Below, piece by piece: positions 11,101 to 19,341 of a stretch of 64,000 bases of DNA. Origin of the DNA: Desulfomonilia bacterium (GTDB taxonomy: Bacteria; Desulfobacterota; Desulfomonilia; UBA1062); NCBI GenBank assembly GCA_963664325.2, contig CAXXDQ010000007.1, positions 32,001 through 96,000 on the forward strand, in the 5' to 3' direction. The translations under genes and the position numbers were made by a program. How positions within the stretch are numbered: the first letter of the stretch is position 1; every line of letters begins with the position of its first letter. The notes beneath the pieces are model-generated. The model was not told the DNA's origin, ran no database searches, and worked only from the letters and a program-made list of their open reading frames with translations.

Positions 11101-14100
11101 ATGGTGGCCATAATATTATTCGGTCGGTGCCGGGGCATGGTTTTGCTTCCTCTACTCCGTAATCTTTCAATTCTGCTTCTGATTTGTTTCCTTATTACAT
11201 CCTGCAAACCAGATGCTCAATTCAGAGCATTTCCGACTAGCGGCAATGCCCCATTGACGGTGTATTTTGATGCCTCATCAGGCAAAGTCAAAGAAAACGA
11301 AAAGTTAACATACAAATGGGATTTCGACAGCGACGGTGTTACAGACGCAAAAGGACTCACCGCCTCGCACAGATATAACGCCGGTGTTTATAATGCGACT
11401 TTAACTGTCACAGATGAAAAAGGTATGTCAACCAAGACATCGCAAAAAATTAAAGCAGGATCAGGGGCGAGTATTCTGTCCGGTGCCTTGTCTGCAGACG
11501 CAGGAGAAGGTGAGGCAGAATCGGATCCCAATTACAATTCAAAGGGAATTACACCATTTCATAACTTTTCAAGCATGATGCCCTGTGAACAGGTCGATCC
11601 GTTCACAGGCAACCTTATGCTGACTCTGACACCATTTTCATTGCCACAGAAAGGCGGATGGAACCTGAATATCAATCTCGTTTATAACAGCAAGATATTC
11701 AGAGATCCGCAGTTCAAAGACATCGCTGAGGATTCCTGGGTCGGAATCGGCTGGTCGCTGCATATGGGACGCATCATCGCACCAGGCACACCATCGATGG
11801 CGGTTGAAATGCCGGATGGTTCATCGCATCAATGCTATTCAACCAATGGTGACGGAAGCAATGCCATTCAACCCTGGAGAACGCGGGAAAATTGGCTTAT
11901 CACCCGTGAAGATGAAATATATACGCTTGTTCTGGATGACGGGACAAAATATATCTTTGAATCCCTGGGCGGAGTGGTTGCCGGAAATAAAGTCTGTTAT
12001 CCGGCAACAAAAATCACCGATACATCCGATAATGATGTGATTATAAGCTACAGTCCCAGACAAACGATGTCCGGCAGACTGCCCTTTATTGACAATATTA
12101 GAGACACTTATGAAAGAGTAATCACCTTTTATCCCATCGTAAACGAAACCGGTCCATCATATTTGCAATCCATTTCATCAGGTGGGAGAACCTTTAATTT
12201 CACCTATTATAATGTTCCCGGGCAGGTAGGACCTTCAAGATATAAACTTCTAACAACTTTCAACGCGCCGCTGGATCAGAACTGGCGGTTCAATTACTAT
12301 GTGAAGAAGCCATTATTTGAACTGAAATCCTTTGTAACTCCAACAGGTGCCAAGATCAGTTATACCTACAACACAATGTCTTTTACTGATTTCAACAAAA
12401 GGCCGTTTAAACCCTTGAAGTTTCGTTCAGTAATTAAAAAGGAGCTTTCAGGTGACACCGTACCCGGCATCTGGGAGTATGAATATCAGAATGGCAACCA
12501 GACAAGGATTATTTGCAAAGACGGTTCCGATAAAATAGTAAGGGAAGAAATATACAATTTCTACGGTTATAACGATGTTGGCTACGGTTCTTTCTGGCTT
12601 ACCGGACTGGTAAGAAAAAAAACCCTGGGATATATATCAAAGGATGGGTTTCTTCGCAGAAGCCAGGAGGAAAATTATTCCTGGGACAGGCATATTGTAG
12701 TGGATCATGTTTCCGGCTCACTGCATTACGACGACAAGGTATATGCCCCTGTACTTAAGAAGAAAGAGATTATAAGAGGAACGAATAAAATATATACAAC
12801 AACTTATGATGGTTATAAGGATAATCCCTACGGACATCCAACATCAATAACCGAAACAGGCGACAGGACAAGAACGACAAACGTTGCATACTGGTATAAG
12901 GCTGATAAAAATATTGTAAATAACAGTCATGTAAGTTCAAAGACAGTCACTGTAGATGGCGAAAGCTATATCGATACATTCAGCTACTGGGAAAATACCG
13001 GCAAACTCCACACCAAAACGCTTATCGGTGTTACAACGACTTATGTCTATGACGGGTTCGGCAATCTTGAAATCATCACGGATGCAAACGGTCATTCAGT
13101 CAATTATGAAAATTACAAGTTCGGAAAACCCCAGACCATAGACAAGACCGAATATATTGAGAAATATGTAATAAATAATCAGTGGGGCGACACGGACCAG
13201 CAGTACATTGAGGGACGCGGCAATACTACATCCTATACTTATGACGGGTTAGGCAGGCTTAAAACAATAACCCCCCCTGTAGGTGCATCGACTGTTTATT
13301 CTTATCCGCTCCATGGCACATATGTGCTTGAATCAAGAGGCGGGTATTCGTTGTATACAATGTATGACTCACTTGGCAGGAAAACAGGCGCATATGAAGT
13401 CGGCGCATCAGTCAGAACAGACATCGAATATGACATACTCGGTCGAAAAATCTTTGAATCATACCCTTACAGTGTTGTATCTTTCACGCCTGCAGACCGG
13501 GAGGTTCAAAATCTGTCCCAGGATAATTATGATCCGAATTCACCTCCGGAAACACCAAGTCCGCCCTATGACCTTTCAGCGATACCTGGAGATACATATA
13601 TAACCATTGAATGGAAATGCGACTCAAATGAAGTATTTTTTGATATTAAGGACAACAGCGGGATTGTTTATCAGATGGGTGATATCAATGCATTTAGCCT
13701 ATACGGGCTTGAGCCGAGCACTGATTATCAGTTCCAGGTCAGGTCTGTGAGCTGGTATGACAGTACAATTACCTCAGAATGGGTATCTATCGGGGCAAGA
13801 ACAACAACTCCTGATACAACACCGCCTGCATCAGTAGAGAATTTCCATGCAACAACAAACGTCGATTCTGTCGAACTGACCTGGGACGGAAACACCGAGG
13901 CCGATTTGAAAGGGTACTGCATTGAATCCCAGGAACAGGGCAGCGGCGTCTGGAATTCCATAGCAAACCCCGGTTTTCCAGGAATGATAGAGGAATTTTC
14001 CTGCATCAAAGGCATGACATCCTGGACGGTGTTCAGTACCTTCATTAATCCTTTCTCAACTTACAAGTTCAGAATTCGAGCGGTGGACAGGAGCAGGAAC

Positions 14101-14148
14101 GAATCAAATAGTGTCGAATCCGGATGGGTAACACCCGGTCTGATATAG
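11101..14148 (+). CDS. split-Rhs part 1: lipoprotein signal + PKD + Rhs N-terminal/YD repeats + two FnIII domains
   Basis: GGAGG RBS; lipobox ITS-C35; PKD (YKWDFDSDG); EQVDPFTGNL and WVGIGWSLH Rhs N-terminal motifs; YD repeats up to YDILGRKIFESYPYS; FnIII (GLEPSTDYQFQVRSV, YKFRIRAVD). Confidence 0.88.
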   Translation: MVAIILFGRCRGMVLLPLLRNLSILLLICFLITSCKPDAQFRAFPTSGNAPLTVYFDASSGKVKENEKLTYKWDFDSDGVTDAKGLTASHRYNAGVYNATLTVTDEKGMSTKTSQKIKAGSGASILSGALSADAGEGEAESDPNYNSKGITPFHNFSSMMPCEQVDPFTGNLMLTLTPFSLPQKGGWNLNINLVYNSKIFRDPQFKDIAEDSWVGIGWSLHMGRIIAPGTPSMAVEMPDGSSHQCYSTNGDGSNAIQPWRTRENWLITREDEIYTLVLDDGTKYIFESLGGVVAGNKVCYPATKITDTSDNDVIISYSPRQTMSGRLPFIDNIRDTYERVITFYPIVNETGPSYLQSISSGGRTFNFTYYNVPGQVGPSRYKLLTTFNAPLDQNWRFNYYVKKPLFELKSFVTPTGAKISYTYNTMSFTDFNKRPFKPLKFRSVIKKELSGDTVPGIWEYEYQNGNQTRIICKDGSDKIVREEIYNFYGYNDVGYGSFWLTGLVRKKTLGYISKDGFLRRSQEENYSWDRHIVVDHVSGSLHYDDKVYAPVLKKKEIIRGTNKIYTTTYDGYKDNPYGHPTSITETGDRTRTTNVAYWYKADKNIVNNSHVSSKTVTVDGESYIDTFSYWENTGKLHTKTLIGVTTTYVYDGFGNLEIITDANGHSVNYENYKFGKPQTIDKTEYIEKYVINNQWGDTDQQYIEGRGNTTSYTYDGLGRLKTITPPVGASTVYSYPLHGTYVLESRGGYSLYTMYDSLGRKTGAYEVGASVRTDIEYDILGRKIFESYPYSVVSFTPADREVQNLSQDNYDPNSPPETPSPPYDLSAIPGDTYITIEWKCDSNEVFFDIKDNSGIVYQMGDINAFSLYGLEPSTDYQFQVRSVSWYDSTITSEWVSIGARTTTPDTTPPASVENFHATTNVDSVELTWDGNTEADLKGYCIESQEQGSGVWNSIANPGFPGMIEEFSCIKGMTSWTVFSTFINPFSTYKFRIRAVDRSRNESNSVESGWVTPGLI

Positions 14149-18800: not shown

Positions 18801-19341
18801 ATATGTTGATCCGGATGGGCAATGGGCAAGAAATGTTCATAAAACACTTACAATACAATGGGCACAAGCTGTACACTTCACACCACATGAAGCTTCAATA
18901 ATCGGCAAAGCCTGTATTGGTGTGGATTCAATTTGGAGAGGCAAGAGTTTTATTCCCCTAATCGGGGAACAGAGCTATCATTTCAATACCGGTGGCGGCG
19001 AATGGAATTCTAAAGAGGACACTAGAAGAATACATACTGAAGAGCATTTGCAGAAAGCTATACAACTGGCATCTATGGATTATTATAGAGCACTAAAGGA
19101 GTTGGGAATAGGGCTCCATGCTTTGCAGGATATTTTTGCTCATGATGAGGAAATGGGTTTGCAGAAAGAAATACTAGATGTGTATTATCATGACCAACCT
19201 GTTTTGGATTTAAAAAAGAATCGGGCGGATGATATTACTGATGTTCCAACACAAGGTAAAGAACGACTTATAATGACAGAAAATGCGACAAGTATTTACT
19301 TGAATCGTTTTCTTGATGCTACAAGTATAGGAGGAGAATGA
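15799..19341 (+). CDS. split-Rhs part 3: lipoprotein signal + 3 PKD + beta-propeller + Ig-like domains + Rhs core + Zn-PLC/P1-nuclease-like toxin tip
   Basis: ATGA overlap with part 2 (ORF track starts 15778); lipobox LLG-C; three YxWDFxNDG PKD repeats; YVTN-like propeller (SPNGKKLY); core YTGKERDETGLDYFGARYYD...NNPYKYVDPDG; tip W..NVH...HF...LHALQDIFAH. Confidence 0.9.
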   Translation: MMNISVNFWKTILIGVILIGNNLLLGCKPTVFINASVENGKPPLEVKFDGFKTKDLGNDIIRYEWDFTNDGSIDSTGIETSHIYDIPGKYSARLVVTDSKGNSSEAKKIITVEPYARPQAVIEMSQQRGEAPLEVVFDGSFSTDEDNDIVTYNWDFDNDGEFEIVGSIKPVKIFESPGEYTVRLLVIDAQGLSSETAATVDATVHKEFQAVIKATPDAGESPLRVEFDGSSSTDNGYDPISSYDWDFDNDGIIDVSNSVTTAHTYDKPGKYTAKLIITDSKGNKAEAVQVIRSYGKERGYIPLYMPGDDFPYKHYLAIFDSSSQSLIETIELPVSASGYAAHPSGKKLYFSHWEDTGEELVTFIDIFDTYTRTIIQSINVGSIGSVNSLAVSPNGKKLYIGTHFGLYSLKLSDNSFNVVLSGGAFYKMAFSRDGGTRLYIVHSFPHGSQYITEIDTSNDRFTREHYVSGYIYGIECYNVGASPNFAQFNDFQPYVYLLTHDSFPAPQQNEQTNYITWVETEFAGNYLSNYVKELLPADGYFNYLASNWNGTRLYTAEQSSENTSSILNIIKIDTADRIMENLMLCDIVTKGGFEYLSGFGVPISDTRLFILSQTNIDPEWDEGDPIITCLSTDTLLLDETIVLPYHLDYGVNNFMVYSLNKISGRILSGGIPLAGYPVVISDGKVTKTSYTDEDGYYTFYMPDGSYDLKFLNDDSLCSVDEMPLNVNGQDIDIPDVAELLHLVCSVSDDVIYRGESTTLSWTTRQAESVKITPSLGQDIGSVDVNGSLDVSPLKKTTYSIQARGNGRSLTKELRVSVLYVAKILEFNSDRTTVYEGESVTLNWVIEDAEEIYLNGEEICDSIGSITVTPGQTESSYTIRARGTTGDYIIRTITISVVPQVVYYHYDILGNTIAQTDDQGRVIMKADFLPYGAAEQDLTGRGTPETRLYTGKERDETGLDYFGARYYDSSLGRFLSVDPAGPDPMNPMSWNRYAYCLNNPYKYVDPDGQWARNVHKTLTIQWAQAVHFTPHEASIIGKACIGVDSIWRGKSFIPLIGEQSYHFNTGGGEWNSKEDTRRIHTEEHLQKAIQLASMDYYRALKELGIGLHALQDIFAHDEEMGLQKEILDVYYHDQPVLDLKKNRADDITDVPTQGKERLIMTENATSIYLNRFLDATSIGGE
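18565..18819 (+). repeat. Rhs core repeat, copy 1 (in the main gene)
   Basis: 18646-18776 reads identical to 20110-20240 (131 bp); near-identical to copy 3. Confidence 0.9.

Follow-up and report, generated by a model that had tools for sequence, protein, structure and literature searches.

An Rhs toxin locus with its YD shell encoded in three consecutive genes, each with a predicted Sec signal

The closest described systems and the three-gene locus

Several described toxin systems bear on the locus examined here, a trio of adjacent genes (genes 1, 2 and 3, encoding P0001, P0002 and P0003) on the plus strand of a 64,000-nucleotide (nt) stretch of contig CAXXDQ010000007.1 from a Desulfomonilia bacterium (GCA_963664325.2), hereafter the window. 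The genome that holds the window is called G000, and P, L and G numbers denote proteins, loci and genomes of this analysis. In excerpts of the published accounts, TcB and TcC of the Tc toxins form one cocoon from two chains. The teneurin-like proteins (TLPs), as presented in the relevant passages of PMC13018210 (Nat Commun 2026), are single-chain toxins, exported through Sec, whose YD shell is accompanied by extra adhesion domains, a beta-propeller and a transthyretin-like domain; the toxin at the C-terminus is polymorphic, and immunity genes lie next to it. Those of Gram-negative bacteria have signal peptidase II (SPII) lipoprotein signals. The delivery route of TLPs is described there as unknown; Thermodesulfobacteriota appear in a figure legend, and split forms go unmentioned in those passages. 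Sec-dependent RHS toxins are also tabulated, under the label 'T2SS' (type II secretion system), in the excerpted tables of PMC3482391.

The three genes of the window together encode what single-chain relatives carry as one continuous shell of YD repeats, and each begins with a predicted export signal. We think it reasonably probable that a cage is put together from the three chains after Sec export, with adhesion modules at its seams, an assembly in trans that we infer from sequence. What is new is a three-chain, Sec-exported form of the Rhs/TcB-TcC cage. Since two-chain cocoons and single-chain Sec-exported TLPs were known already, the split cage is a variation on known systems and not a novel type of system. 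An earlier, sequence-only reading of this DNA had known of no description of the architecture. Phrase searches of the literature for split, bipartite, two-gene or tripartite Rhs gave 0 occurrences, the searches being limited and the TLP supplementary tables outside their scope; that claim thus stands for the three-way form and not for multi-chain cocoons or Sec-exported YD-shell toxins in general. How Rhs, Tc and teneurin-type cages close and open is an open question where the delivery machine is unknown, as the TLP passages also say of the TLPs themselves (PMC13018210). A natural cage in several pieces gives a handle on assembly, in that each seam can be studied, mixed and mutated separately; in addition, the toxin-bearing piece may be swappable between shells, and separate cage pieces could serve as a protein-encapsulation scaffold.

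As in the Tc BC cocoons (TcdB2-TccC3, YenB-YenC2), a YD cage would come from more than one polypeptide, with the last chain carrying the core with its DPxG motif and the toxin. P0053, a relative of 815 amino acids (aa) that consists of a signal peptide, shell segment 2, core and toxin, has a TcC-like make-up and suggests a two-chain form within the clade of the middle piece. The locus differs from Tc in having three chains instead of two, the extra break leaving ~110 aa of Rhs on the toxin chain, and in having a Sec signal on every chain, whereas TcB and TcC, to our knowledge, have none. The TcA-binding family PF18276 had no match in G000 or in G023, a relative with the same split (see below), in a search whose control matched in no genome, and the Pfam scan of gene 1 gave no SpvB, TcdB-mid or other TcB-specific domain. 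The immunity gene and the orphan cassettes downstream point to interbacterial use, unlike Tc.

With the TLPs, as far as the passages of PMC13018210 describe them, the locus shares Sec export, the YD shell, adhesion domains, a propeller, a transthyretin-like domain and a toxin/immunity pair, and genes 1 and 3 have SPII-type lipoboxes (ITSC and LLGC, respectively). By the three-model definition in those passages, a single TLP chain holds, in this order, an FN-plug, an NHL propeller and a YD shell; here the parts lie on three genes, a YVTN-like propeller stands on chain 3 before the core, and the Pfam scan of genes 1-3 gave no NHL family. The TLP cores 9IFO and 9PT5 matched gene 3 at only E 0.13-0.26. 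Sec-dependent Rhs/WapA-type toxins are alike in signal peptide, YD repeats, core, toxin/immunity pairs and orphan cassettes, but unlike the present locus they are single polypeptides. Rhs effectors of type VI secretion systems (T6SS), namely RhsA, Tse5 and RhsP, have the same core and, judging by models, the same shell fold. Here, Sec signals are present instead, and the Pfam scan of genes 1-3 turned up no PAAR, prePAAR or VgrG-linked N-terminus, in line with the sequence-only reading, which had reported PAAR/VgrG links as absent. TssC was not found in G023 (98% complete), which carries the split locus, while in G000 it lies ~880 kb from the locus.

The trio consists of open reading frames (ORFs) of 1015, 547 and 1187 aa, taken from the ORF list, which by their coordinates lie in frames 1, 2 and 1. 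They are tightly packed: 10 nt separate genes 1 and 2, and ATGA overlaps occur between genes 2 and 3 and between gene 3 and the following gene, P0004. The features of the trio are as follows, all on the plus strand.

11085 to 11100, plus strand: Shine-Dalgarno region of gene 1, AGGAGGTCTGTC before the ATG (read from the sequence)
11101 to 14148, plus strand: gene 1 (P0001, 1015 aa), with a lipoprotein signal, PKD domain, plug, shell segment 1 and two FnIII-like domains (ORF, family scans)
11101 to 11205, plus strand: signal peptide of gene 1, lipobox ITSC with Cys35 (motif, hydropathy)
11209 to 11442, plus strand: PKD domain, residues 37-114 (PF18911, E 4.4e-12; collagenase PKD chains matched in the PDB)
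11524 to 13491, plus strand: Rhs shell segment 1, residues 142-797, ending at FESYPYSVVSFTP, junction 1 (RHS_repeat, RHS_core, junction alignment)
13552 to 14106, plus strand: two FnIII-like domains, residues ~818-905 and 911-1002 (second, fn3 PF00041, E 3e-7; first, pattern)
14146 to 14158, plus strand: junction 1 in the DNA, the gene 1 stop TAG overlapped by AGGAGG, with 10 nt to gene 2 (sequence)
14159 to 15802, plus strand: gene 2 (P0002, 547 aa), with a type-I-like signal at residues 1-27 (...GLCA/DG, cut at the slash) and shell segment 2 at residues 29-541 (ORF, family scans, hydropathy)
15778 to 19341, plus strand: gene 3 (P0003, 1187 aa from 15778; likely start 15799), with the lipoprotein signal LLGC, accessory domains, Rhs core and toxin (ORF, scans)
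15799 to 15802, plus strand: junction 2 in the DNA, an ATGA stop/start overlap with GAGAGGGGAG upstream (sequence)
15895 to 16677, plus strand: three PKD domains, residues ~40-300 (PF18911, 3 stretches, E 1.4e-45)
16687 to 17757, plus strand: YVTN-type beta-propeller-like region, residues ~304-660, limits inferred (PDB 1L0Q, E 6.2e-19, 2 stretches, best 323-431)
17782 to 18492, plus strand: CarboxypepD_reg/transthyretin-like domain, matched over 669-717, and behind it a pair of Ig-like repeats of ~80 aa, 746-905 (PF13620; Ig-like repeats from the sequence)
18496 to 18825, plus strand: Rhs-associated core, residues 907-1016, ending YVDPDGQ/W, cut at the slash (TIGR03696)

YD (RHS) repeats score above the cut-offs of PF05593 and TIGR01643 in both genes 1 and 2. 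The earlier reading had the repeats of gene 1 stop near 13473 and FnIII domains follow. The YD part does finish there, at ...YDILGRKIFESYPYS (residues 777-791, ~nt 13473), and a family model places fn3 downstream at 911-1002, the other FnIII domain being seen as a pattern; P0005 and L026 have fn3 there too. In gene 1, residues 628-784 correspond to positions 517-673 of the 1261 in RHS_core. A DUF6531-like plug at residues 163-242 scores 21.6 bits, below the 24.1 cut-off, and the aligned place in L030 scores 36.4 bits. Gene 2 consists, in the family scans, of a hydrophobic N-terminus and YD repeats and nothing else; as first read, its own signal is followed by GTKYTYDNLDR (residue 29, nt 14243), and the YD part closes with YIYLGSKILVK.

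In gene 3, the start at 15799 is the likely one because GAGAGGGGAG and then the ATGA stop/start overlap precede the coding region. The sequence-only reading placed VVYYHYDILGN behind a lipoprotein signal, three PKD domains, a propeller and Ig domains, all of which holds, the Ig-like repeats being read from the sequence pattern only. The core opens with these residues (residue 907, nt 18496), scores 72.9 bits with TIGR03696 against a cut-off of 32.5 and covers RHS_core positions 1136-1260. Upstream of it, the propeller match, 1L0Q, is a Methanosarcina surface layer (S-layer) protein with a YVTN propeller, and the PF13620 match scores 28.7 bits, below the 32.3 cut-off, compared with 38.6 bits in the third piece of G023. 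The core aligns to those of TccC3 and YenC2, and its DPAG and DPDG motifs, the predicted self-cleavage motifs, align with TccC3. Their aspartates are presumably the catalytic ones.

Ribosome-binding sites and Sec signals had been claimed for each gene. Shine-Dalgarno sites can be read at all three; AGGAGGTCTGTYATG stands 5' of both gene 1 and gene 2, at gene 2 overlapping the gene 1 stop. The maxima of N-terminal hydropathy over 12 aa are 3.02, 3.18 and 2.23 for genes 1, 2 and 3 and 3.27 for P0004, compared with interior maxima of 1.1-1.7 (1.21 in gene 1). By motif match, lipoboxes are present in gene 1 (ITSC, Cys35) and gene 3 (LLGC).

Continuity and conservation of the break points

The three Rhs segments (residues 142-797, 29-541 and 907-1016) amount to ~656 + 513 + 110 = 1279 aa, in agreement with the 1250-1300 aa estimated at first sight, and the RHS_core positions matched in gene 1 (517-673) precede those matched in gene 3 (1136-1260). 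At junction 1, a single ORF of L030 matches the end of P0001 as far as residue 644 of that ORF (...LESYPFTGSASTP) and the beginning of P0002 from the ORF's residue 646 onward (GTTYTYDALGR...), and L031 and L033 also read through this junction. At junction 2, the single-chain proteins P0014-P0016 read ...YV.L.GQPLAK, ~5 residues, IYY.H.DHLG, while P0053, a clade-mate of the window's middle piece, has ...DYIYLNGRVIAKY-VEASGTL-TYFHHDALGN... across a loop of 10 aa and goes on into the core and a toxin of P0003's toxin family. Single-chain or less-split relatives (L030, L031, P0053) thus cross both junctions with neither gap nor overlap, and the colinearity foreseen by the earlier reading is borne out: in single-chain relatives, the last strand of gene 1 is succeeded by the one with which mature gene 2 begins, and the last strand of gene 2 is succeeded by the Rhs core found in gene 3. 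The single-chain P0013 has an insert of ~70 aa at precisely the loop of junction 2, a place that can therefore accommodate insertions. This insert holds two Asp-rich calcium-loop-like (dockerin-like) repeats.

In order to find the same split elsewhere, P0002 was searched against the genomes of 40 relatives, one of which matched, namely G023, a Thermodesulfobacteriota genome of the same family but another genus. There, genes of 997, 537 and 490 aa keep the order of the window and break at the same points, at 32-36% identity to the window. Gene 1 ends in an fn3 C-terminus; gene 2 is a signal followed by YTEYTYDALGR...YLYLGSRVVAKYLW; gene 3 is a signal, CarboxypepD_reg, LVYYHYDLQGS...DPDGEW and a different toxin, after which comes an ORF of 150 aa that lacks a signal peptide. 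Directly upstream of this trio, on the same strand, is a series of five ORFs (240-323 aa) with no Pfam family (L003, G023:C20, 10020-14553 minus), and an IS110-family transposase lies downstream of it (L003 2013-3212). The metagenome contig L026 has a 1006-aa gene 1 with fn3 and a 536-aa gene 2, and stops 125 nt past gene 2. The sequence-only reading had proposed looking for the same three-gene split, and the full trio of G023 and genes 1 and 2 of L026 are what such searches returned.

A word-indexed library search gave 38 matches, five of them full-coverage proteins of 534-547 aa; P0046 (512 aa), P0048 (517 aa) and a pair of fragments truncated at the N-terminus came in addition from an exhaustive profile search. 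The stand-alone middle pieces thereby number eight (P0002, P0009-P0012, P0006, P0046 and P0048; 512-547 aa). All eight have hydrophobic N-termini, with the first YD repeat within a few residues, and their clade has at least 8 members that are 32-91% identical. The tree was built from 61 chosen rows (8 middle pieces, 8 proteins ending at junction 2, 2 starting at junction 1, 22 core-less tailed, 20 single-chain and 1 from Pseudomonas) and left out the rest of the best 150, including every protein above 3000 aa. In it, the eight middle pieces and P0053 form one clade with a support of 99 in the Shimodaira-Hasegawa-like approximate likelihood ratio test (SH-aLRT). The Pseudomonas row, P0024 of P. 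gingeri (484 aa), is a stand-alone middle piece with the same two junctions and no signal peptide, placed in a different clade among shell proteins that lack a core; it may be a fragment, or else a non-Sec Rhs that was split independently.

In a sample of the phylum, 36 of the 401 genomes (G000 included, G023 not being part of the sample) match at E <= 1e-20, and a frame of ~550 aa occurs only in G000. Together with the conservation in distant relatives, this indicates that the three-gene form is rare but old. G000 itself has two further Rhs genes: a lone 276-aa core and C-terminal remnant with no signal peptide (L084, G000:C7:131000-141000, 4237-5067 minus), ~40 kb beyond the window and near a transposase-like gene, and a conventional single-chain Rhs of 1640 aa (L085, G000:C4:802000-814000, 4570-9492 minus) between two large WG-repeat proteins. 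As far as is visible, neither serves as a spare part for the split locus.

These findings bear on two simpler explanations. One is that the trio is a decaying single-chain rhs gene in non-functional pieces, which would suit its position in a low-GC (guanine plus cytosine) island (0.35-0.46 between 10 and 26 kb, against 0.55-0.60 in the left flank and 0.48-0.56 in the right) that also contains truncated orphan cassettes. On the other side, the ORFs are intact, all three in the window and G023 and the first two in L026, with the same breaks at 36-44% identity, and each piece has acquired a ribosome-binding site and a signal peptide. Because intact ORFs share the break points at 32-91% identity across a clade of at least eight members, we exclude decay, a very improbable explanation; to the earlier reading, too, the genes did not look like frameshift decay.

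The other is an assembly artefact, or one protein made by frameshifting or read-through, for which one might cite that genes 1 and 2 of G023 share a frame and are separated by a stop and two codons. In the window, the frames 1, 2 and 1 mean that read-through cannot join the three genes, and a read-through product would contain internal signal peptides. Assembly errors at the junctions, one of the events that the sequence-only reading named as fatal to its proposal, are opposed by the same layout in independent assemblies of relatives at 36-91% identity and by Logan contigs of two runs that cover 13600-16400 with 0 differences and 0 gaps relative to the window. It should be noted that both runs come from one sample, possibly the source of the window itself, and that what a further run, X4, contributed were just short pieces from a relative, with neither junction 1 nor junction 2 bridged by any of them. 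Either explanation, artefact or recoding, is scarcely credible. Of the four refuting conditions set by the earlier reading, three were examined, on colinearity, signal peptides and assembly errors, and none of them went against its proposal.

Proposed assembly of the cage, and cores on separate genes

The same break points in distant relatives indicate that the cage is probably assembled from separate pieces after export. In the separate pieces of all split loci examined, the N-termini are hydrophobic (peaks of 2.1-3.3, with interior maxima of 0.6-2.3) and have AxA-like ends, and the first YD or core strand starts a few residues after the signal. A PDB sequence search with gene 2 gave 0 matches at E <= 0.01. 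Its AlphaFold2 model, made from a 5-row alignment, shows a helix at the N-terminus and then one beta-hairpin after another (mean predicted local distance difference test, pLDDT, 67.3; predicted template modelling score, pTM, 0.40). It matches Rhs, Tc and teneurin shells with Z 9-12 and a root-mean-square deviation (rmsd) of 10-22 A: 8QJB (Z 12.3 over 343 aligned residues), Tse5 (Z 12.0, residues 32-426 on 422-765), YenC2 (Z 11.0, residues 113-426 on 7-431) and TccC2 (Z 10.5), these two in their N-terminal part and with an rmsd of ~16 A, the register of these matches being unreliable because the fold is a repeat.

The operon would accordingly be read, in our proposal, as a functional, horizontally acquired Rhs polymorphic-toxin operon that makes a YD cage from three Sec-exported polypeptides. 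After export, the plug and segment 1 (gene 1), segment 2 (gene 2) and the core (gene 3) would dock edge to edge and close around the 171-aa C-terminal toxin, which the aspartyl-protease motif of the core (DPAG...DPDGQ/W, cut at the slash) would free inside the cage. The accessory modules at the two seams, namely the two FnIII domains of gene 1 and the three PKD domains, propeller, transthyretin-like and Ig-like domains of gene 3, would face outward and be adhesive, and in this organism the products of genes 1 and 3 would be lipid-anchored. The toxin would probably be a metalloenzyme of the phospholipase C/Het-C type acting from the periplasmic side, from which an immunity protein with a signal peptide would shield the producer.

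An alternative is that there is no single cage: gene 3 would be a self-sufficient lipoprotein toxin whose core is only self-cleaving, and genes 1 and 2 would be independent YD adhesins or repurposed leftovers. It fits this idea that gene 3 itself bears most of the adhesion domains, and that small genes made of a signal peptide, core and toxin exist (see below), which could in principle act alone. Yet the breaks are exactly colinear and leave open edge strands, the mature N-termini are the next expected strands, gene order and adjacency are retained at 36% identity, and core-only genes seen in context always lie directly behind a core-less shell gene. Furthermore, by analogy with known Rhs and Tc structures, a core of ~110 aa would be too small to enclose a 171-aa toxin alone. 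We regard this alternative as unlikely, though deserving of weight.

Several observations count against a cage assembled from three chains. The signal peptides were judged from hydropathy and motifs, not by a trained predictor. All three genes are seen in context in only 2 genomes, with genes 1 and 2 also on the cut contig L026. The pieces of G023 and L026 have type-I-like signals and not lipoboxes, so lipoprotein anchoring is not conserved; the surface anchoring of the earlier proposal therefore stands for genes 1 and 3 of the window and fails as a general feature. The model of gene 2 is only moderate and its shell matches are of high rmsd, while that of gene 1 (5-row alignment, mean pLDDT 45.8) is unusable. 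Finally, P0002 and its 91% relative P0009 end ...VKCHKRGES, where other middle pieces end ...KY.W; the changed tail of P0002 (window 15772-15802) coincides with the overlap of the gene 3 ribosome-binding site and start.

Beyond the trio, a core on a separate small gene is seen repeatedly. In L030, L031/L032 and L043, the gene behind a core-less shell ORF is small (309-355 aa) and made up of a signal peptide, a core that opens with ..YYH.D.LGS and a toxin. L046 has a similar arrangement, in which the ORF that comes after a core-less shell ORF bears a core and runs off the contig. Every core-only gene seen in context sits directly after a core-less shell gene. L040 is split at junction 1 only: its gene 1 ends ...ESYPGRYR and its gene 2 comprises a signal, an Ig-like domain, shell segment 2 and the core. 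Adhesin-like modules occur at breaks here as well, with BACON, DUF7948, SBBP propeller repeats and Calx-beta after the shell of L030, Fn3-like domains in L043, an Ig-like one in L040 and fn3 in L026. L031 (11125-14389) has, behind a shell gene of 1154 aa, two consecutive signal-peptide, core and toxin genes (309 and 302 aa), and a small ORF comes after each of the two (118 and 177 aa, respectively); from their arrangement, they look like alternative toxin subunits, each with its own immunity gene.

In 43 of the 80 fetched loci, shell segment 2 and the core share one ORF. Among the 150 best representatives from the profile search are 4 stand-alone middle pieces, 2 fragments ending at junction 2 and 7 long shell proteins that terminate <=12 aa from junction 2. 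A crude and weak test (phmmer with the window core, plus the motif) found no core on the chain in 75 of these 150, 53 of the 75 being below 3000 aa. Ten core-less tailed shells (P0070, P0088, P0105, P0113, P0149, P0152, P0158, P0172, P0184 and P0186) have a similar hydrophobic motif at the C-terminus, ~P-[AI]-[IV]-M/L-x-x-I-x-x-L-L-L-x-[DN], which may be a sorting or docking signal.

As a tentative and still doubtful generalization, Sec-exported Rhs cages might be modular multi-subunit machines that are assembled after export from one or two shell subunits and a small, separately exported core/toxin cartridge, with seams, flanked by adhesion modules, that open on contact with the target. The window trio might then represent the most finely split form within a widespread family of two-component cages. 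If so, one shell could load alternative cartridges without recombination (cf. L031), and the family would have been overlooked because core-less shells and small core genes are annotated as fragments. For annotation, this means that many of the 75 core-less relatives among the 150 could be subunits instead of fragments or pseudogenes; the split locus directs attention to a larger group of two-component Rhs toxins that has been overlooked.

Toxin, immunity genes and surroundings of the locus

The toxin-encoding end of gene 3 and the genes that follow it have these features.

18826 to 19338, plus strand: C-terminal toxin, 171 aa, with the motif HALQDIFAH (HxxxDxxxH) (weak sub-threshold family matches)
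19338 to 19970, plus strand: P0004 (210 aa), a putative immunity gene whose product has a signal peptide; overlaps gene 3 by 4 nt (ORF, hydropathy 3.27)
20029 to 21440, plus strand: orphan cassette 1, a truncated core and related toxin without a signal peptide (20029-20793) and an immunity paralogue (20790-21440) (sequence comparison)
21573 to 22238, plus strand: third immunity paralogue (sequence comparison)
22438 to 24186, plus strand: orphan cassette 2, a core remnant with an unrelated C-terminal domain (22438-23097) and a lipoprotein-like ORF (23137-24186) (sequence comparison)

The gene 3 toxin has sub-threshold matches to Zn_dep_PLPC, DUF6765, VWA7_N and Het-C. With PF00882 (Zn_dep_PLPC; cut-off 26.8 bits) it gives E 0.019 and 15.3 bits, and the orphan copy gives E 8.6e-4 and 19.7 bits. 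Its atlas neighbours, a Zn_dep_PLPC cluster (12% of members) and VWA7_N, are leads only. The Tox-HET-C family, which has the same motif, is tabulated with RHS-linked toxins in the excerpted tables of PMC3482391. This evidence, which is weak, suggests a toxin of a phospholipase C/Het-C-like type. For P0004 and its two downstream paralogues, the family scans gave no family; all of them bear signal peptides, which fits a target reached from the periplasm.

The core of orphan cassette 1 is 90% identical to that of gene 3. Two orphan core/C-terminal cassettes and three immunity paralogues are the layout of a variable-toxin Rhs locus, with toxicity and immunity putative, and by this layout the locus is a classic Rhs toxin/immunity island with the usual orphan array. 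The C-terminal domain of orphan cassette 2 belongs to no known family. It is followed by the lipoprotein-like ORF (349 aa, lipobox INGC), which may be the immunity gene of this cassette, and by a 252-aa exported ORF (24227-24985).

A promoter/terminator scan gave 47 promoter-like sites, compared with 44.6 expected from shuffles, and no excess upstream of gene 1. No tRNA gene was found in the window, the borders of the island included, and no integrase or transposase was seen inside the low-GC island (window 10001-26000). The flanks on either side are housekeeping in character and encode acyl-CoA dehydrogenases, a TetR regulator, a DUF362 protein and a resistance-nodulation-division (RND) efflux operon.

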